Positions 19,565 to 28,196 of a stretch of DNA of 64,000 nucleotides are shown in pieces. The position numbers and the translations under genes were made by a program. Source of the DNA: an uncultured Aquimarina sp. (GTDB lineage: Bacteria; Bacteroidota; Bacteroidia; Flavobacteriales; Flavobacteriaceae); the NCBI GenBank assembly GCA_947500545.1, contig CANMSO010000013.1:24491-88490 (forward strand), written 5' to 3'. Under the pieces are notes generated by a model, which saw only the letters and a list, made by a program, of their open reading frames with translations, was not told the DNA's origin and did no database searches. Positions within the stretch are counted from its first letter, which is position 1, and each line of letters opens with the position of its first letter.

Positions 19565-19685
19565 GCATGTGCGAATAAGGTTTAAATATACTAAGTTTTA
19601 GAATTTATCGATCTTCTATAACGTTTTAGTTTGTGACTTGATTTAGATAGATATTCATTTTACTTGTCTTACTACAAAATAAACG

Positions 19686-19693
19686 TATTTTTG
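19686..19693 (+). promoter_or_regulatory. -7 box of the SulP gene
   Basis: TATTTTTG, 21 nt before ATG 19715. Confidence 0.6.
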
Positions 19694-19714
19694 CAGCCTC
19701 AAATACCATTGACT

Positions 19715-21313
19715 ATGACTGAGTTTGTAAGAAAAAGAGTGGCAAACGCCAAAAATGATATTTTATCGGGGCTAACGGTAGCGCTAGCTTTGGTGCCAGA
19801 AGCAGTTGCTTTTGCCTTTGTCGCGGGTGTTGATCCTTTGGTAGGGCTATACGCTGCATTTATGATTGGATTGATTACTTCAGTTTTTGGAGGCCGTCCA
19901 GGGATGATTTCTGGTGCTACAGGAGCATTAGCAGTGGTAATGGTAAGCTTGGTAGCCGAAGGAAATGCAATGGGAGCTCCTGGAGAAGAACTTGGCTTGT
20001 ATTATCTATTTGCAACGGTTATTCTTATGGGGATAATTCAAATGCTAGCAGGTGTTTTTAAACTTGGTAAGTTTGTTCGTTTAATTCCGCACCCGGTGAT
20101 GATGGGATTCGTAAATGGACTAGCGATTGTTATTTTTCTATCTCAATTGGGAATGTTCAAAGAATATGTGAACGGAGAAAAAGTATGGATGCAAGGAATG
20201 GGTCTATGGCTAACACTTGGATTAGTATTGCTAACAATGGCAATTATGTGGGGATTACCTAAACTAAAGGCAACTGCAAAACTCCCTGAAGCATTAATTG
20301 GGATTGCAGTAGTTTCGGCCATTGTGATTTTGGGCAAGTTAGATGTTGCCACCGTAGGTAGTTTTATTAAAGATGGAGGAGGGGAAGGTCTTAAAGGCGG
20401 ATTACCACAGTTTCAGTTTGATATTTTTAACAAAGTGCCTATGAGCTGGGAAACTTTCAAGTTTATTGGACCTTATGCTTTGATTCTGGCTGCAATTGGT
20501 TTAATTGAATCACTAATGACACTAAATCTGATTGATGAACTTACTGAAACTCGAGGGAACTCAAATAGAGAATGTTTAGCACAAGGTGGAGCTAATATTG
20601 TTACCGGTCTTTTTGGAGGAATGGGTGGTTGTGCAATGATTGGTCAATCTATAATCAATATAAAAGGAGGAGGTCGTACAAGACTTTCAGGTATTGTTGC
20701 CGCTGTAACACTACTGTTATTTATCTTATTTGCATCTGGACTGATCGAGCAAGTGCCTATTGCGGCCTTAGTTGGAGTAATGTTCATGGTAGTAATCGGA
20801 ACCTTTGCCTGGTCAAGTTTTAGAATCTTAAATAAAATACCTCTTACAGATGCTATTGTGTTAATAGCTGTATCTTCATTAACGGTGTTCTTTGATCTTG
20901 CGGTGGCGGTAATTGCAGGGGTGATTATGTCTGCATTGGCGTTTGCTTGGGAAAACGCCAAAAAAATTAGAGCAAGAAAACATATAAAAGAAGATGGAAC
21001 CAAAGTATACGAAATCTGGGGTCCATTGTTCTTTGGGAGTATACAAGCTTTTAATAGCAAGTTTGATGTTGCTAATGATCCAGAGAATGTAGAGATCGAT
21101 TTTATCGAATCTAGAGTGAGTGATCATTCTGCACTAGAAGCAATCTTTACCCTGGTTGGAAAGTATGAAGAAGCTGATAAAAAAGTTAGAATCAAGCATC
21201 TTAGCGAAGAATGCCAAGCATTAATGATAAAAGCTTCTCCTAGATTAGCGAACGTAATAGAACATGATGTAGATGATCCAAGATATCATGTAATGGCAAA
21301 AGCAATGCAATAA
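19715..21313 (+). CDS. SulP-family anion transporter with STAS domain
   Basis: LSGLTVALALVPEAVAFA, GRPGMISGATG, NRECLAQG, C-terminal GPLFFG STAS. Confidence 0.93.
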   Translation: MTEFVRKRVANAKNDILSGLTVALALVPEAVAFAFVAGVDPLVGLYAAFMIGLITSVFGGRPGMISGATGALAVVMVSLVAEGNAMGAPGEELGLYYLFATVILMGIIQMLAGVFKLGKFVRLIPHPVMMGFVNGLAIVIFLSQLGMFKEYVNGEKVWMQGMGLWLTLGLVLLTMAIMWGLPKLKATAKLPEALIGIAVVSAIVILGKLDVATVGSFIKDGGGEGLKGGLPQFQFDIFNKVPMSWETFKFIGPYALILAAIGLIESLMTLNLIDELTETRGNSNRECLAQGGANIVTGLFGGMGGCAMIGQSIINIKGGGRTRLSGIVAAVTLLLFILFASGLIEQVPIAALVGVMFMVVIGTFAWSSFRILNKIPLTDAIVLIAVSSLTVFFDLAVAVIAGVIMSALAFAWENAKKIRARKHIKEDGTKVYEIWGPLFFGSIQAFNSKFDVANDPENVEIDFIESRVSDHSALEAIFTLVGKYEEADKKVRIKHLSEECQALMIKASPRLANVIEHDVDDPRYHVMAKAMQ

Positions 21314-21354: not shown

Positions 21355-22113
21355 ATGGATATTCCTTTTGAGCCTATTGTTTTTGGTGTTAAAGTGAATA
21401 TCCATTTGGTTTTAGAGTATGCCGCTTTTTTTATCGGTTTTCGGTATTATATCTACTTAAAGAAGAATTCACAGGATGTAATATCATCATCTAATAGATT
21501 ATCAATAATTATAGGTGCAGTTTTCGGAGCCTTTTTTGGTTCTAGAATTGTTGGCTTTTTAGAGAACCCTATACTCTCATTCGGACCAGAATACCTTCTT
21601 TCTATACTTAACTCAAAAACTATTATGGGTGGACTTTTTGGTGGTTTACTTGGAGTAGAGTTGGCAAAAAAAATAATTAAAGAAAAACATTCTTCTGGGG
21701 ATTTGTTTACGTTTCCGATCATTTTGGGAATTATAGTGGGTAGATTAGGCTGCTTTTTATCAGGAATCAATGAGTTCACCTACGGAAAAGAAACTGGCTC
21801 TTTTCTTGGAATGGATTTGGGAGATGGTATAACAAGACATCCTATTGCACTTTATGAAATTATTTTCTTAATCACTTTATGGCTTTTTTTAAAACACATT
21901 CAGAAAAAGTCTATTTATAAAAGCGGGCTACTTTTTCAGTATTTTATGATTTTGTATTTTGTGTTTAGGCTTTTTATAGAATTCTTGAAACCTAATATAT
22001 TTTTGGTCTTAGGGTTAAGTAGTATTCAGTATTTATGTATCTTATGCTTGATTTATTATTGGAAAACAATTCGAGATACATTTTATGCCAACAAGAAACT
22101 ACACGTATTATGA
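21355..22113 (+). CDS. Divergent Lgt-family (prolipoprotein diacylglyceryl transferase-like) membrane protein
   Basis: About 7 TM; GRLGCFLSG, RHPIALYE and FRLFIEF correspond to Lgt motifs; KTIMGG stands where canonical Lgt has SFHGG. Confidence 0.85.
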   Translation: MDIPFEPIVFGVKVNIHLVLEYAAFFIGFRYYIYLKKNSQDVISSSNRLSIIIGAVFGAFFGSRIVGFLENPILSFGPEYLLSILNSKTIMGGLFGGLLGVELAKKIIKEKHSSGDLFTFPIILGIIVGRLGCFLSGINEFTYGKETGSFLGMDLGDGITRHPIALYEIIFLITLWLFLKHIQKKSIYKSGLLFQYFMILYFVFRLFIEFLKPNIFLVLGLSSIQYLCILCLIYYWKTIRDTFYANKKLHVL

Positions 22114-23479
22114 TTTTACATTAAGCTTATGTCCTACCTGTCTTAAAAGAATAGATGCTAAGATAGTTTTTGAAGAAGATAAAGTGTTTATGCTGAAACG
22201 TTGTCCAGAGCATGGTAGATCAAAAGTTTTGATTGCGGATGATATAGAATACTATAAGAGCATTAGAAATTATAATAAGCCTTCAGAATTTCCATATAAA
22301 TTTAATACGACTACAGATTATGGATGCCCTTATGATTGCGGACTGTGTCCAGATCATGAACAACACTCTTGTTTAACTATTATTGAAGTAACTGATCGCT
22401 GTAACTTAACTTGTCCTACTTGCTATGCTTCTTCATCTCCTCACTATGGGAGACATCGTTCTTTTGACGAGATTAAAAAGATGCTTGATACGATTGTTGA
22501 AAATGAAAAAGAACCGGATGTAGTACAAATTAGCGGAGGGGAACCAACTATACACCCCCAGTTTTTTGAAATTCTGGATTACGCCAAACAACTACCGATT
22601 CGACATCTTATGGTAAATACCAACGGAGTTCGTATTGCTAAGGATGTTAAATTCACAGAGCGATTGGCCGGATATATGCCAGATTTTGAAATTTATCTGC
22701 AATTTGATTCTTTACAAGAAGAAGTTCTAAAAAAATTAAGAGGAGAGAATTTAACACATATAAGAAAACAAGCTATACATAATCTTAATCAGTTTAACTT
22801 ATCTACAACTTTGGTGGTTACCTTGGAAAAAGGTTTGAATGATGATCAAATAGGAGAGGTTATTTCGTTTGCTACTAAACAAAAAAGTGTAAGAGGGGTT
22901 ACATTTCAACCTACACAAATTGCAGGTCGATTAGAAGATTTTGATGTGCAAACTAATAGAATAACATTAACCGAAGTAAGAAGAAAGATATTAGAGCAGT
23001 TTCCTATATTTGAATCTGATGATCTTATTCCTGTGCCCTGTAATCCAGATGCATTAGTGATGGGGTATGCGCTAAAAAATGAAGAAGGGATTTTGCCGCT
23101 TACAAGATATATCAATCCTACAGATTTATTGGATAATGGAAAAAATACTATTGTTTATGAGCAGGATGAAGAATTACACGGTAAAGTACTTGAACTTTTT
23201 AGTACGGGTAATTCTGTTGAAAGTGCCTCGGAAAACCTGAAATCCATTATGTGTTGCTTGCCAGAAATTGATGCACCCGATTTGGGTTATGATAACCTAT
23301 TTAGGATTATTATTATGCAATTTGTTGATGCCTATAACTTTGATGTTAGAGCGATCAAAAAATCTTGTGTTCATATTGTAAATAAAGATTACAAGATTAT
23401 TCCTTTTGAAACTATGAATTTGTTTTATAGAGATGATAAACAAGAATATCTAGAAAAACTAAGAAACGAAGTGATATGA
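22085..23479 (+). CDS. Radical SAM protein, tetraether synthase (Tes/MJ0619)-like architecture
   Basis: C16-x2-C19...C40-P-E-H43 N-terminal metal site, C81xxxC85xxC88xxH91 auxiliary motif, C106xxxC110xxC113 SAM cluster, SGGEPT, C-terminal SCVH...IIPF. Confidence 0.85.
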   Translation: MPTRNYTYYDFTLSLCPTCLKRIDAKIVFEEDKVFMLKRCPEHGRSKVLIADDIEYYKSIRNYNKPSEFPYKFNTTTDYGCPYDCGLCPDHEQHSCLTIIEVTDRCNLTCPTCYASSSPHYGRHRSFDEIKKMLDTIVENEKEPDVVQISGGEPTIHPQFFEILDYAKQLPIRHLMVNTNGVRIAKDVKFTERLAGYMPDFEIYLQFDSLQEEVLKKLRGENLTHIRKQAIHNLNQFNLSTTLVVTLEKGLNDDQIGEVISFATKQKSVRGVTFQPTQIAGRLEDFDVQTNRITLTEVRRKILEQFPIFESDDLIPVPCNPDALVMGYALKNEEGILPLTRYINPTDLLDNGKNTIVYEQDEELHGKVLELFSTGNSVESASENLKSIMCCLPEIDAPDLGYDNLFRIIIMQFVDAYNFDVRAIKKSCVHIVNKDYKIIPFETMNLFYRDDKQEYLEKLRNEVI

Positions 23480-23694
23480 TACTAAACACTATCTCTTTAG
23501 AAGGTGGAAATTACGATGCAATAATTTACTTAATTCTATTAATTCTTTTAGGACCACCAATATTCCTTGCTCTTATTGGAGTAATCCTATTCAAAACGCA
23601 ACATCGAAAGGCGGGTAAAGTATTTTTTATTCTCGCCGGAATATATCTTGTTGTAGGGTTAGGAATTTGCGGAGCTCTGATGGTTGGGTTTTAG
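23476..23694 (+). CDS. 72-aa two-TM membrane protein with a single C-terminal Cys
   Basis: ATGA overlap with the radical SAM stop; two hydrophobic helices separated by KTQHRKAGK. Confidence 0.75.
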   Translation: MILNTISLEGGNYDAIIYLILLILLGPPIFLALIGVILFKTQHRKAGKVFFILAGIYLVVGLGICGALMVGF

Positions 23695-24512
23695 ATTCTT
23701 TCTAAAAGGTACATAGTCTCGTTCAGGATTTCATTTTTGGTACTGATTTCAATATTTGGGGCATAAATTTTTGATAGCTCAAATTCATCTGTTTTTTCTT
23801 TTATTGTATATCCATCTATTGAAGAAAAATAAGAATGGGGTATGGTTTGATGTGAAAAAGAGTCATTAGTGTCATTATTACTGTCAAAATAATGTAATAA
23901 ACGGTGGTATACTTCTGTGTTTTCTACTTCTGGCAAGTAGGTTACACTACCCGTAATATCTCCAGGATTTTGTAATCCTTTAAAAATTTGAAATAATTTA
24001 TTCGTCGTTGAGCGGTCTAAAAAGAAGAATACACCTTCGATTAGAATAAACGTAGGTTCCTTTTTGATTAGTGGTTTCAGTGTTTTTATAATTTGATCTG
24101 CAGTATTTTGATTAAAATCCACAGCTACGTACTGAACATCTCGATAGGGTAATTCTCCTTCTTTAGTCCAATTGTCGATTTTCTCTTTTTTATAATCAAT
24201 GATATCTTTTTTATCAATCTCGATTGTAGAAACAGAATCGTTAAACGAAAATTGATACATACTAAAACCTGACCCAAAATTAATCAATGTACCACCCCCA
24301 TTAGTATCAAAAAATGATTTCATATGCTCATAGAAAAAACGATTTCTTATGCTGTGTAAAATGGCTTCATGCTTAGAGATGGTATCCAGAATAGATGGAA
24401 TTATAGCATCTGTTTGTTGATTGTTCCATAATTTTGCAAAATTATCTTTACTTATTTCTTGGTAATGAGACCTGTAAGTTGATACTACGAAGGCGGTTTC
24501 ATGAACTTTCAT
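23691..24512 (-). CDS. Class I SAM-dependent methyltransferase (LCM/TcmP-like)
   Basis: ETAFVVSTYRS, RNRFF, LINFGSGF, VAVDF, ILIEGVFFFL. Confidence 0.78.
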   Translation of the reverse strand: MKVHETAFVVSTYRSHYQEISKDNFAKLWNNQQTDAIIPSILDTISKHEAILHSIRNRFFYEHMKSFFDTNGGGTLINFGSGFSMYQFSFNDSVSTIEIDKKDIIDYKKEKIDNWTKEGELPYRDVQYVAVDFNQNTADQIIKTLKPLIKKEPTFILIEGVFFFLDRSTTNKLFQIFKGLQNPGDITGSVTYLPEVENTEVYHRLLHYFDSNNDTNDSFSHQTIPHSYFSSIDGYTIKEKTDEFELSKIYAPNIEISTKNEILNETMYLLERI

Positions 24513-24642: not shown

Positions 24643-25101
24643 TTATGCTATAGCTACAAAAATATCTACTTCGGCATCCTTAGGGTTTAGAGCATCTTCA
24701 CCGTATACTTCGAAATCTGTAGTATAGGTTCTTTTTAAATCGGTTTCCCATATAGTTACCCATTTATCATAAATTACCCCTTTGGTGATATCCCCTTTGG
24801 CGGTAAATCGAGAATAGGTGTTTTTTTCGATATGGATGCCAGTCATACCAGTTGGTATTGTGTCTAAGTTTTTAACTTTGCAACCCAATATTGTAGTATA
24901 TCCTTCGGTATGATCACTTTCGTAATCCGTATACAAGGCATAGATAGTGTCTTCAAGCCTGTTTGGGATTTGGTCAATCATATTTTCAGACATAAAAGTA
25001 TTCCATAGAGCAGGAATATCCTTTTCAAATTGATCATTTTTTTTAGTGGTTCGTACAGAAATCCCTATTACATGAAAAGGGTGAAGCTTTATTTTTGCCA
25101 T
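24643..25101 (-). CDS. GyrI-like effector-binding protein
   Basis: VIGISVRT, YALYTDYESD, RTYTTDFEVY; no HTH. Confidence 0.85.
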   Translation of the reverse strand: MAKIKLHPFHVIGISVRTTKKNDQFEKDIPALWNTFMSENMIDQIPNRLEDTIYALYTDYESDHTEGYTTILGCKVKNLDTIPTGMTGIHIEKNTYSRFTAKGDITKGVIYDKWVTIWETDLKRTYTTDFEVYGEDALNPKDAEVDIFVAIA

Positions 25102-25200: not shown

Positions 25201-26394
25201 TTATATAAACCCTAGTTTTTCAAAGTCTTTATTTAAAATCGTTTGATCATTTACATTTAACCAATTGTTTAATACCGATGCATAAACACTCCTGAAATCT
25301 ACAGAATATTTGATATCTCCGTTATTGTCTAAATCAGAAAGATTTGGTAATTCGTTATACACACCTGCTTTTTTCAAAGAACCACCTATGACAATTACGT
25401 TATTTGCTGCTCCATGATCGGTACCCCTGCTACCATTTTGTTTCACACGACGTCCAAATTCTGAAAAAGTAAGAATCAAGGTGTCCTTAAATCGATCATT
25501 CGCTTTTAAGTCTTTAACCAAGGCGCCAACAGAATCTGAGTATATTTTGAGCAATCGATCCTGGCTGTTTAATTGATTTACATGACTATCAAAACCTCCT
25601 AGTGAACTGTAAAACACTCTTGTTTTTAAGCCAGAGATTATAAAATCAGCAATTGTTTTTAGGTGCTTGGAAAATGGGTTTTGAGGGTATTCAGTATTGG
25701 TTTGATGAATCTTTGACGTTTCATAAATGTATGAAGCAGAGGAATAGGTTTCTAACATCGTTTTGTATAGATATCCCTGATTGTCTTCATCTAACATTTC
25801 TTTTTGAGTGTTCTTAATTATGTTCTTGAAAAAAGGTTCTCTTGTTGTTCGGTAGAGTTGGTTGGGATCGGAAGCAGCAATACCATTCATGGTGTTGCCT
25901 TTTAAGGCTAATGACAATGAATTATCTATTTCTATTGCTTGGTACGGGTGCTGGCAATTGGCATCCAGGTATCTGCCTACCCAACCTGTTGATAGATACT
26001 GATTGGTATCACTTGCCGTTTGCCAGATATCCGTACTTCTAAAATGTGATCTATTAGGATTAGGATACCCTACATTATTAATGATAGATACTTCTCCCAA
26101 GTCATATAGTTTTTTGATTTCTTTTAGGTTGTCATTAAAAGCTAAATCATCGGTAATTTTTAGTGTTCGAGATTCTTTTTTAGCAATAAATGGCCTTGCG
26201 CTATGATAGATATCGTTACTAATAGGGATAATACTATTTAATCCGTCATTTCCGCCAGAAAGTTGAATAATGATCACATTTCTATATCCCGATAATTGTT
26301 CTGGTGTTAGAAATTCCATTCCTTTTAAGAAAGAAGGAATCATCGTCATTCCTGATGCAAATACTGATTGTTTTAAAAAATCTCTCCGTTTCAT
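25201..26394 (-). CDS. DUF1501-family protein with Tat-like signal
   Basis: MKRRDFLK; QLSGGNDGLN, SHFRS, GGFDSH, FSEFGRR, GTDHG. Confidence 0.88.
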   Translation of the reverse strand: MKRRDFLKQSVFASGMTMIPSFLKGMEFLTPEQLSGYRNVIIIQLSGGNDGLNSIIPISNDIYHSARPFIAKKESRTLKITDDLAFNDNLKEIKKLYDLGEVSIINNVGYPNPNRSHFRSTDIWQTASDTNQYLSTGWVGRYLDANCQHPYQAIEIDNSLSLALKGNTMNGIAASDPNQLYRTTREPFFKNIIKNTQKEMLDEDNQGYLYKTMLETYSSASYIYETSKIHQTNTEYPQNPFSKHLKTIADFIISGLKTRVFYSSLGGFDSHVNQLNSQDRLLKIYSDSVGALVKDLKANDRFKDTLILTFSEFGRRVKQNGSRGTDHGAANNVIVIGGSLKKAGVYNELPNLSDLDNNGDIKYSVDFRSVYASVLNNWLNVNDQTILNKDFEKLGFI

Positions 26395-26406
26395 GGTCTT
26401 ATGGTT

Positions 26407-27810
26407 TTAGCAAAGTTGATATTCTGGTAGGCTCAATAGTTCGATAACAAAATTCTTGGTATCCTTTGCTTCTAATTTAGATACGATGACTTTGGCAGTT
26501 TCAGAAAGACTTGGTTGCAACATGAAATTTGTAAGTTCAGATTTGTTTTTTTGTTCCAAATCATCTAAAAATACTTGCCAATTGGGTATGGCTTTTACCT
26601 TCCTTTGAAGTTTTGACTTTATCTTTTTATAGACTTGTTGTCTGATAATCGTATTCTCTGGCATATCTCCTTTTTCATGCCATTCTATTACTCCGCTATT
26701 CAGCGTTAATGAAACTAATTTTAAACGAAGCATCAGTGTAGAGTTGTCTATCCATGCCCTTCCTCCTGTCCAGCCTGCTACATTTGGAGGAAAGAACAAC
26801 ATTTGATTTAGCTTTTTTTGAAGATAGAGCAATACCTTGGGGTCTTCATACTGTACTTGAAAAGACTTGCTAAGTCCTACTATTAGTTCGATAGGGGATT
26901 TAATCTTGGTTCCAATATTATTAGAAGAATAAAACCAATCACTCTTAAGAATCGCTCTTACTAGAGCTTGAAGATCGTAATTAGCATCATAAAAAATCGT
27001 TGTAAGATATTCAATGTGATTTTTATTAATGGTTTCATTCACAAAATAAGAATATATTTTCTCGGTGAGATATCGCGCAGTTTGTTTTTTTTCAAGAAGT
27101 ATTTTGATGACATCTTCCCCGGTGAAACTCCCTGTTTTATCAAAGATCGTTTTGGTACCATAATCATGATGGTTTTTTCTAAAAACAAATGTTCCATTCT
27201 TATTAAAATTCCAACCGGTAAATGCTCTGGCAGCCTCTTTGATATCATTTTCCGTATACCCATTATCTCTTCCCAGAGTAAATAACTCCATTACCTCACG
27301 GGCGAAATTTTCGTTAGGGTGGTCTTTTCTATTTTGCTTGTTGTTTAAAAATAGTAGCATTGCAGGAGATTTGGATACTTCCATAAGCATATCTCCAAAG
27401 TTCTCTAAAGCATGTTCACGAATGATGTTGTTAAGATGAATACATGCACGTGGGGTTCTAAGTCGTACGGCAAAATGATCATGAAAAAACAATGTCATTT
27501 TCTCACGTAACACTTGATCAGTGTCTATTAATTGTTTTAACCAAAGCGTATTTAACTCGGACATTTTTTTATTCCGGAGTTGTCGTAATTGTTTTCGTTC
27601 TTCTCTGGATAGCTCTTTAGAATTTTTTTCTAATGCCCCAAAACTCATAGATAATGGGGCGCTCTCCTTACTTTCTTCAAATAGTCGATCAATGATTTGA
27701 GTTTTTGAGAGGACTCTAACCGTTTCAAGTTCTGAGGCAGAAATTCCAAACCCGATTCTCCAATAGAGATGTTGAATTTGTTTGTCTGATAAAGAGGTAA
27801 TCATAATCAC
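26407..27810 (-). CDS. DUF1800-family protein
   Basis: LREKMTLFFHDHF, PAMLLFLN, PNENFAREVMELFTLG, PPNVAGW. Confidence 0.9.
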   Translation of the reverse strand: MIMITSLSDKQIQHLYWRIGFGISASELETVRVLSKTQIIDRLFEESKESAPLSMSFGALEKNSKELSREERKQLRQLRNKKMSELNTLWLKQLIDTDQVLREKMTLFFHDHFAVRLRTPRACIHLNNIIREHALENFGDMLMEVSKSPAMLLFLNNKQNRKDHPNENFAREVMELFTLGRDNGYTENDIKEAARAFTGWNFNKNGTFVFRKNHHDYGTKTIFDKTGSFTGEDVIKILLEKKQTARYLTEKIYSYFVNETINKNHIEYLTTIFYDANYDLQALVRAILKSDWFYSSNNIGTKIKSPIELIVGLSKSFQVQYEDPKVLLYLQKKLNQMLFFPPNVAGWTGGRAWIDNSTLMLRLKLVSLTLNSGVIEWHEKGDMPENTIIRQQVYKKIKSKLQRKVKAIPNWQVFLDDLEQKNKSELTNFMLQPSLSETAKVIVSKLEAKDTKNFVIELLSLPEYQLC

Positions 27811-27869: not shown

Positions 27870-28196
27870 TTATTTCTTGGTTCTTACCGCGGCTTCATAA
27901 GATTTTGTGACCCAATCTTTTAGTTTGTTTTTGTCTTCAAGAATATCAGCTGGTACCTCCCAATAGGGCATTCCTTTCTTTTTCTTTTCAGAATAAAAAG
28001 GTTTCATGCCTTTGTCTTCATATTCTTTTTTGTTAAACTCATCTACCTTTAGTCTTAAGACATCACTACCGATTTTGCCAAACATAAGCCCCTGATGAAA
28101 TAAACCAATACCTCCAAACATTTTTTTGACGTCTACTTGGCCAAATTCGGACAATTGATCTGTTACATAATTTAGATATTCTTCGCTTACCGCCAT
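27870..28196 (-). CDS. TfoX N-terminal domain protein
   Basis: KKMFGGIGLF...LRLKVD...MPYWEVP. Confidence 0.85.
   Translation of the reverse strand: MAVSEEYLNYVTDQLSEFGQVDVKKMFGGIGLFHQGLMFGKIGSDVLRLKVDEFNKKEYEDKGMKPFYSEKKKKGMPYWEVPADILEDKNKLKDWVTKSYEAAVRTKK

Follow-up and report, generated by a model that had tools for sequence, protein, structure and literature searches.

Why should a gene resembling that of prolipoprotein diacylglyceryl transferase (Lgt) overlap the gene of an enzyme from the radical S-adenosylmethionine (SAM) class, one whose best solved relative couples the tails of archaeal lipids, and why should the latter run into the gene of a tiny membrane protein with a single cysteine? 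The question is raised by positions 21355-23694 of a 64-kb window, i.e. the whole stretch of 64,000 nucleotides from a contig of an uncultured Aquimarina sp. (CANMSO010000013.1) that was analysed here. An earlier interpretation made without database searches (the sequence-only reading) had described these genes as co-oriented and overlapping, first by 29 nt and then through an ATGA junction, and both overlaps were found again in the list of open reading frames (ORFs) and in the junction sequences:

21355-22113, + strand: Lgt-family paralog gene, 252 amino acids (aa), from the ORF list
22085-22113, + strand: overlap of 29 nt between the Lgt-like and radical SAM genes, junction read directly
22085-23479, + strand: Tes/GDGT-MAS-like radical SAM gene, 464 aa, from the ORF list
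23476-23479, + strand: ATGA, where the stop of the radical SAM gene overlaps the start of the small gene, junction read directly
23476-23694, + strand: small membrane protein gene, 72 aa, from the ORF list

The homology assignments of that reading (an Lgt paralog, a Tes-like radical SAM enzyme and a Cys-bearing membrane peptide) agree with the Pfam and PDB matches described below, and database names for the two enzymes go no further than "prolipoprotein diacylglyceryl transferase family protein" and "radical SAM protein". Comparison across genomes strongly supports the view that the three genes make up one conserved, widespread and uncharacterised functional unit.

Linkage, fusions and surroundings of the three genes

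One genome per species was scanned with an alignment of the radical SAM protein, loci being selected on this protein alone, and 80 loci were registered at 54-91% radical SAM identity. Together with five loci from an exact-protein look-up they gave 83 non-redundant loci, which are not phylogenetically independent. The scan loci belong to Bacteroidota (five classes), Gamma- and Betaproteobacteria, Acidobacteriota, Planctomycetota, Cyanobacteriota, Myxococcota, Gemmatimonadota and, within Bacillota, to Paenibacillus, Bacillus, Heyndrickxia, Fictibacillus and Gottfriedia. The module occurs in at least nine bacterial phyla, between which the radical SAM protein is 55-80% identical; the copy from the window is 91% identical to Aquimarina proteins. 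An Lgt paralog on the same strand was found at 82 of the 83 loci, being adjacent, overlapping or fused in 73 of them and lying within 4 kb in the other 9, and the sole locus without it begins at a contig end. The overlap of 29 nt recurs in other Flavobacteriaceae (loci L003, L014, L017, L018 and L031), as does the -4 (ATGA) junction in most loci of this family. Since the longest ORF was always called, overlaps in high-GC genomes are overstated; the G+C content of the window is about 33%.

In some genomes the two enzymes are a single protein. A metagenomic protein of 733 aa is a natural fusion of LGT, Zn-ribbon and Radical_SAM domains, and a search with it returned at least 57 clusters of fusion proteins, 656-825 aa long, from Planctomycetota and Verrucomicrobiota. 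The AlphaFold2 (AF2) model of one such fusion matches both the structure of the archaeal enzyme GDGT-MAS (7TOL, E 4e-31, TMt 0.76) and that of Escherichia coli Lgt (5AZB, E 2.5e-7, TMt 0.56). Over 70 loci the distance matrices of the Lgt paralog and of the radical SAM protein correlate with r 0.88, a value reached by 0 of 999 Mantel permutations. Because the two proteins are inherited together and are often one polypeptide, genomic evidence of this kind shows them to work, presumably, as a physical complex. The co-occurrence in other genomes on which the sequence-only reading had staked its interpretation is therefore real: the pair is adjacent, overlapping or fused in the 73 loci mentioned above, and the fusion clusters come in addition.

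Recurrence of the triad, of its overlaps and of the gene pair across phyla goes far beyond chance, which excludes an accidental adjacency. The most trivial explanation, namely that a housekeeping lgt happens to lie beside an unrelated radical SAM gene, can appeal to the database name of the first gene and to little else, and we consider its probability negligible: it is refuted by the linkage in at least nine phyla and by the natural fusions, and the first gene product scores only 40-44 bits where the Lgt equivalog cut-offs are 119 and 334, with the essential His103 (E. coli numbering) lost in 75 of 75 copies.

The linkage extends to radical SAM relatives of 57%, 43% and 41% identity, which still have an Lgt paralog, whereas a relative of 42% identity has a methyltransferase and a DsbD-like protein as its neighbours instead; as far as these neighbourhoods tell, the clade linked to Lgt is therefore one branch of a wider radical SAM family. 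Other Tes-like radical SAM proteins (P0347, P0376, P0349) are fused to a MobA-like NTP-transferase plus HD, a class I methyltransferase and DUF5714, and such fusions indicate that the family has probably diversified into several uncharacterised pathways. At the locus of the 41% relative (L088:2268-5408) the order is small protein, radical SAM and Lgt-like gene, followed by an ArsP_1 permease and a membrane protein with Sulf_transp/ICMT/PEMT matches. Ahead of the fusion in Planctomycetota and Verrucomicrobiota lies a conserved Cys-rich protein of 430-474 aa with multiple transmembrane (TM) segments, whose start overlaps the fusion (L092:1580-3004, L093:1703-3001, L004:3-806). It has no Pfam match, and its N-terminal stretch looks rhodanese-like by eye (L092 has CNGGIQS, and L093 has Ser where the Cys would be).

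All-against-all clustering of the flanking ORFs yielded nothing but shadow ORFs and lineage-specific synteny, and no additional family that different phyla have in common; in particular, no methyltransferase, sulfur-transfer, protease, transporter or immunity gene is conserved near the Lgt-linked clade. In the window the module follows a SulP transporter gene (19664-21313) and converges with a gene of an LCM/TIGR00027-like SAM-dependent methyltransferase (23691-24512, - strand), whose stop overlaps that of the small gene by 4 nt. Both were considered as parts of the module and rejected, since neither is conserved with it and the LCM-like methyltransferase is not found beside it in other phyla. 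Further downstream on the - strand are genes of a Cass2/GyrI-like effector-binding protein (24643-25101), a DUF1501 and DUF1800 pair (25201-27810) and a TfoX_N protein (27870-28196). Terminator and promoter scans gave no signal above shuffled expectation, and a search for public RNA-seq runs containing the stretch, which might have supported co-transcription, found none. In Lewinella (L001:7623-12817) the genes after the module match JetD_C (weakly) and MksE, suggesting a Wadjet/Mks-like condensin defence locus.

A modified Lgt and its candidate substrate

The product of the first gene matches the Pfam family LGT (PF01790) with 76 bits over profile positions 9-232 of 240 and has seven predicted TM helices in N-out/C-in orientation. 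Its AF2 model (predicted local distance difference test, pLDDT, 84; predicted template modelling score, pTM, 0.82) consists of seven long helices, and the sole significant PDB match of this model in a Foldseek search was E. coli Lgt (5AZB, E 4e-5). The scores against both NCBIfam lgt equivalogs stayed below the cut-offs (TIGR00544, 40.6 against 118.9; NF000778, 44.2 against 334).

E. coli Lgt binds phosphatidylglycerol so that the tails occupy a hydrophobic cavity; activation of the glycerol C3-O bond, which the lipobox Cys then attacks, falls to R143 and R239, and H103, Y26 and E151 are essential (PMC4728403). Alignment of 75 paralogs with this enzyme, whose numbering is used below, showed that G142, R143, G145, G154, P197, Y235 and R239 are invariant in all 75, E202 is mostly retained and E243 is always Glu or Asp. 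The replacements are equally regular. N146, which is said from earlier mutagenesis to be essential in E. coli Lgt too, is Cys in 75 of 75 unfused paralogs, R246 is Lys in 74 of 75, Y26 is Glu in 73 of 75, and H103 of the HGGL motif gave way to Val, Met or Leu in 72 of 75 (Ile or Ala being counted in 7), with His in none of the 75. Residues of the first phosphatidylglycerol-binding or selection site (E151, M100 and G99) are altered, E151 being variable, and the protein is about 40 residues shorter than E. coli Lgt, with a reduced periplasmic head and without the W256/Y259 region. In the window the corresponding features, together with the Cys codon of the small gene, are the following:

21739-21753, + strand: altered Lgt signature motif G129-R130-L131-G132-C133, equivalent to E. 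coli G142-R143-L-G145-N146, with Cys replacing Asn146
21955-21990, + strand: catalytic stretch of TM helix 6 with Y201, R205, E209 and K212, equivalent to E. coli Y235, R239, E243 and R246
23668-23670, + strand: TGC codon of Cys65, the putative modification site, Cys in 90 of 90 collected copies

Because it falls so far below the equivalog cut-offs and has lost H103 in every one of the 75 copies, the protein is to be regarded as an Lgt paralog rather than the housekeeping Lgt. No canonical lgt was found within the 64-kb window, and a separate one is presumably encoded elsewhere in the source genome. What the alignment suggests is a paralog that keeps the core of the transfer machinery (R143, R239, Y235 and E243) together with a distinct conserved set of changes. 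With canonical Lgt it shares the 7-TM N-out/C-in fold, the G-R-x-G motif, G154, P197, E202 and the four core residues, and a plausible acceptor for both is a Cys located where an in-to-out helix ends on the outer side. It differs in the replacement of H103, Y26, N146 and R246, in the variable E151 and in its sub-cut-off scores. Moreover, it appears to have a dedicated partner, one tiny membrane protein whose motif is non-canonical, and its coupling or fusion to a radical SAM enzyme is constant.

That tiny protein, 72 aa long in the window, consists of two hydrophobic helices split by the K/R-rich segment KTQHRKAGK and has C65 as its single Cys, in the motif V-G-L-G-I-C65-G-A near the outer end of TM2, i.e. 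near the C-terminus. Proteins of this kind occur at about 75 of the 83 loci. They are 52-150 aa long, with 2-4 helices and 4-14 residues after the Cys, and are otherwise unalignable: phmmer links only the Flavobacteriaceae and Lewinella copies, so that position, topology and motif served to trace the family, and the collection of Cys motifs was curated by eye from ORF tables. Pfam search with ten diverse representatives gave nothing above cut-off, only faint matches to DUF4064 and similar families. The small gene lies directly downstream of the enzymes in most Bacteroidota, Bacillota, Cyanobacteriota and Planctomycetota, and in Chryseobacterium and Sphingobacterium it is placed between the two enzyme genes. 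Some Bacillaceae, Paenibacillus, Acidobacteriota and Betaproteobacteria have it upstream or in divergent orientation, and it is also found after Lgt-radical SAM fusions. Within Flavobacteriaceae it is under purifying selection (proportions of nonsynonymous, pN, 0.20-0.41 and of synonymous differences, pS, 0.57-0.91).

In the 90 copies the context of the Cys is [LIVF] at position -6, [ILV] at -5, [GS] at -4, [FLGN] at -3, [GSA] at -2, [IALVST] at -1, [GFSA] at +1 and [GAS] at +2. Position -2 is Gly, Ser or Ala in 81% of copies. Since position -1 is bulky (I/L/V/F/M) in 52 of 90, this motif does not read as a canonical lipobox, and in the window the Cys is reached as L-G-I-C, compared with the canonical [LVI][ASTVI][GAS]C. 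Hydropathy and the positive-inside rule suggest for all architectures that the helix with the Cys follows a K/R-rich segment and runs in-to-out, placing the Cys at the outer-leaflet end, and such succession of K/R-rich segment, hydrophobic helix and Cys fits the geometry of a signal peptide with its lipobox. Tandem copies of the small gene, which suggest duplication typical of substrates, were found at L007:2976-3426 and at loci L012, L013, L016, L022, L025, L028, L030, L037, L038, L041, L042, L050, L051, L070 and L081; of the L007 copies the first carries Phe where the Cys would be and the second retains Cys. The idea of the sequence-only reading that this protein is a dedicated substrate has thus obtained real support, the Cys and the orientation of its helix being the only features kept from Flavobacteriia to Bacillota, Cyanobacteriota and Planctomycetota. 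A separate N-terminal motif, L-L-E-[VG]-G-N-[LF]-[DG]-G, predicted to be periplasmic (window 23476-23520, L001, L009, L014, L019, L039 and L052), is common to Flavobacteriia, Lewinella and Sphingobacterium and absent from the 3-TM versions of Chitinophagia, Pedobacter and Bacillota.

The changes in the active site allow a different use of the Lgt fold, in which the paralog is a subunit that transfers nothing or acts otherwise, anchoring the radical SAM enzyme at the membrane and offering it lipid, and the tails of ordinary phospholipids are coupled or otherwise modified, giving, e.g., diabolic-acid-like or macrocyclic lipids, with the small protein as an accessory or regulator and its Cys structural or redox-active. 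The tails of phosphatidylglycerol do lie within a hydrophobic cavity of E. coli Lgt (PMC4728403), the substrates of Tes are free lipids (PMC9433317), and synthesis of spanning lipids has been proposed for its bacterial homologues (PMC8941075); moreover, the essential H103, Y26 and N146 are lost and E151, M100 and G99 are changed. Invariant retention of R143, R239, Y235 and E243, the residues that ready the C3-O bond for a thiol, is, however, hard to reconcile with a mere dock; a single Cys conserved in lipobox geometry through 90 copies and the tandem copies of its gene point to a substrate, and archaeal Tes requires no such partner. Modification of free lipids is possible, though we think it rather unlikely.

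The radical SAM enzyme and its relatives

The second protein contains the Pfam domains Zn_ribbon_HMPTM and Radical_SAM, and its best solved relative is GDGT-MAS of Methanocaldococcus jannaschii (MJ0619, PDB 7TOL, E 4e-73 over residues 11-454), an enzyme that binds two phospholipids and couples their terminal sp3 carbons (PMC9433317). Among NCBIfam models the best match is TrsS (332.6 bits against a cut-off of 490), followed by the Tes model rSAM_GDGT_ether (296.4 against 450), so that both scores are below the thresholds. Conservation of the metal-binding motifs was counted over 70 orthologs:

22130-22213, + strand: rubredoxin-type motif C16-X2-C19-X20-C40-X2-H43, invariant in 70 of 70
22325-22423, + strand: N-terminal auxiliary cluster C81, C85, C88, H91, H94 and C96, then the radical SAM motif CX3CX2C with C106, C110 and C113, invariant in 70 of 70
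23039-23374, + strand: C-terminal region with C319, C390, C391, C428 and H430, invariant in 70 of 70

The spacing of the rubredoxin motif is exactly that of GDGT-MAS (C9X2C12X20C33X2H36, PMC9433317), C81, C85 and C88 with His match its C73, C77 and C80 with His, and the radical SAM motif corresponds as well. The C-terminal residues C319, C390, C391, C428 and H430 are likely ligands of another auxiliary cluster, where only C428, among the Cys residues of this region, aligns with a Cys of 7TOL. Tyr459 of GDGT-MAS, reported as completely conserved in archaeal homologues (PMC9433317), aligns to Ile, and Met439 aligns to Met, which does not reach 90% conservation in the clade. Thus, compared with Tes/GDGT-MAS (7TOL/7TOM), the bacterial enzyme aligns over the full length and has the same rubredoxin, N-terminal [4Fe-4S] and radical SAM motifs, but differs in its C-terminal Cys positions, in Tyr459 and in its sub-cut-off Tes score; its host is a bacterium with ester-linked acyl lipids, and the clade is obligately partnered, whereas archaeal Tes works without an Lgt paralog or a Cys protein.

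Two other families are close enough for comparison. TrsS (NCBIfam NF045646), described in the literature only as a selenoprotein without assigned function, has the same Zn-ribbon and radical SAM architecture, whereas the window enzyme is below its cut-off and has no selenocysteine; a possibly TrsS-like relative, not scored on the TrsS model, has another context, with a methyltransferase and a DsbD-like neighbour. Mss of Thermotoga and Thermoanaerobacter is also a radical SAM enzyme, proposed or shown to couple acyl tails tail-to-tail (PMC13159169), but it is described as a separate family of anaerobes, identified in genomes without Tes homologues, and reports of it name neither an Lgt nor a Cys-protein partner.

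The rearranged ligand set (C319, C390, C391, C428) and the Ile in place of Tyr459 also leave room for another radical chemistry, i.e. methylation, thiolation or other functionalising of a lipid or lipid-linked molecule without formation of a C-C bond, with the two membrane thiols serving as a sulfur or redox relay. The family was originally filed as class D methyltransferases, its sister subfamilies (about 42% identity) pair with methyltransferases or DsbD-like proteins and not with Lgt, and the score is under the Tes cut-off; the rhodanese-like stretch upstream of the Planctomycetota and Verrucomicrobiota fusions, seen by eye and without a Pfam match, is a weak hint in the same direction. This possibility appears unlikely, since the Lgt-linked clade has no conserved methyltransferase or sulfur-transfer gene beside it and the thiols are across the membrane from the radical SAM enzyme.

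Much less probable, in our opinion, is a variant included in the sequence-only reading, a lipo-RiPP (a lipidated peptide, ribosomally synthesized and then modified post-translationally), for which the small protein would be a precursor modified by the radical SAM enzyme, then lipidated and released as a bioactive lipopeptide. Frequent duplication of the small gene, its variability outside one motif and the adjacent radical SAM gene are in line with this idea, as is the weak resemblance of the radical SAM core (residues ~95-280) to the maturase models AlbA, WgkB and SkfB, all matched far below cut-off. However, the whole enzyme aligns with a lipid enzyme, and no SPASM or RRE family was matched in it by Pfam or NCBIfam; the small proteins are integral membrane proteins with 2-4 TM helices and 4-14 residues past the Cys, their surroundings contain no conserved gene for a protease, a transporter or immunity, and identity of 55-80% across phyla is unlike fast-evolving natural-product clusters. 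An anti-phage defence system was also considered and rejected: among PADLOC defence models the radical SAM protein gave only a generic match of its core to pVip, i.e. viperin (55 bits), and the other two proteins gave none.

A proposed route and its meaning for the family

The best explanation, to which we assign a probability of roughly 40%, is that the Lgt paralog lipidates the Cys of the small protein and the radical SAM enzyme couples acyl tails, giving a protein-bound macrocyclic or spanning lipid. The paralog would transfer a glyceryl-lipid, probably diacylglyceryl from a phospholipid, onto this Cys; as the motif often has a bulky residue at position -1, the specificity of the paralog would be orthogonal to that of the housekeeping Lgt. 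The radical SAM protein, a multi-cluster enzyme that must be cytoplasmic, would dock at the cytoplasmic face of the membrane, just where the cavity of the Lgt-like protein has its hydrophobic floor. If it works as Tes does, it may take hydrogen from the terminal carbons of the acyl chains held there and form a C-C bond, the coupling being stored through a C-S intermediate at an auxiliary cluster, so that the product would be either a protein-bound macrocyclic lipid or a membrane-spanning lipid.

Several observations weigh against this scheme, and sidedness is the main difficulty: the Lgt site and the acceptor Cys are predicted on the outer side and the radical SAM enzyme is cytoplasmic, therefore the model needs acyl tails that pass through the cavity of the Lgt-like protein. 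Packing of the domains cannot be read from the AF2 model of the fusion, in which the domains are good but the linker is disordered and pTM is 0.65. Given the replacement of H103, Y26 and N146, the paralog may not transfer diacylglyceryl at all. The Cys of its signature motif is present in 47 of 57 Lgt-radical SAM fusions and absent from 10, so that this residue, judged from the fusions without it, is important but dispensable. The small Cys protein is absent at six loci (L065, L066, L067, L073, L075 and L078). As the C-terminal cluster ligands and the equivalent of Tyr459 differ from those of GDGT-MAS, the radical chemistry may differ as well. Finally, we know of no report of membrane-spanning or macrocyclic lipids in Flavobacteriia, Paenibacillus or Nostocaceae.

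On balance, lipidation of the small protein followed by coupling of its tails, which is what the sequence-only reading had proposed in its main part, stands as the leading hypothesis, the chemistry of which we infer. That reading is favoured by the homology of the two enzymes, by their co-occurrence and by the dedicated substrate; its lipo-RiPP variant is poorly supported, in view of the missing SPASM/RRE match and the integral membrane nature of the small proteins. In its most far-reaching form the proposal describes a new protein lipidation in at least nine phyla, where a dedicated Lgt paralog would load a Cys and a radical SAM enzyme would weld the tails together or to a lipid of the opposite leaflet; we put it forward as tentative.

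Full-text literature searches brought up no paper that connects an Lgt paralog to a Tes-like radical SAM enzyme or describes the module, in agreement with the sequence-only reading, which knew of no characterised pathway with this composition. Bacterial homologues of Tes have been noted since 2022 and invoked, without proof, as sources of glycerol dialkyl glycerol tetraethers of the branched type (brGDGTs), a palaeoclimate proxy (PMC8941075, PMC9433317). Here one large and highly conserved bacterial Tes-like clade turns out to be locked to an Lgt paralog and a Cys-bearing mini-protein, and its context points away from simple synthesis of tetraethers from free lipids and towards a new chemistry, where lipoprotein biogenesis meets the modification of lipids by radicals. 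This is a warning against counting Lgt-linked Tes-like genes as brGDGT markers in metagenomes. The three-gene system is testable, and its natural single-chain fusions are suited to structural work. The module shows that the Lgt fold has been put to a second, dedicated use, and it probably marks a new kind of membrane-lipid or protein-lipid chemistry; if the proposed route is true, it would provide the first assigned function for the widespread bacterial homologues of Tes.

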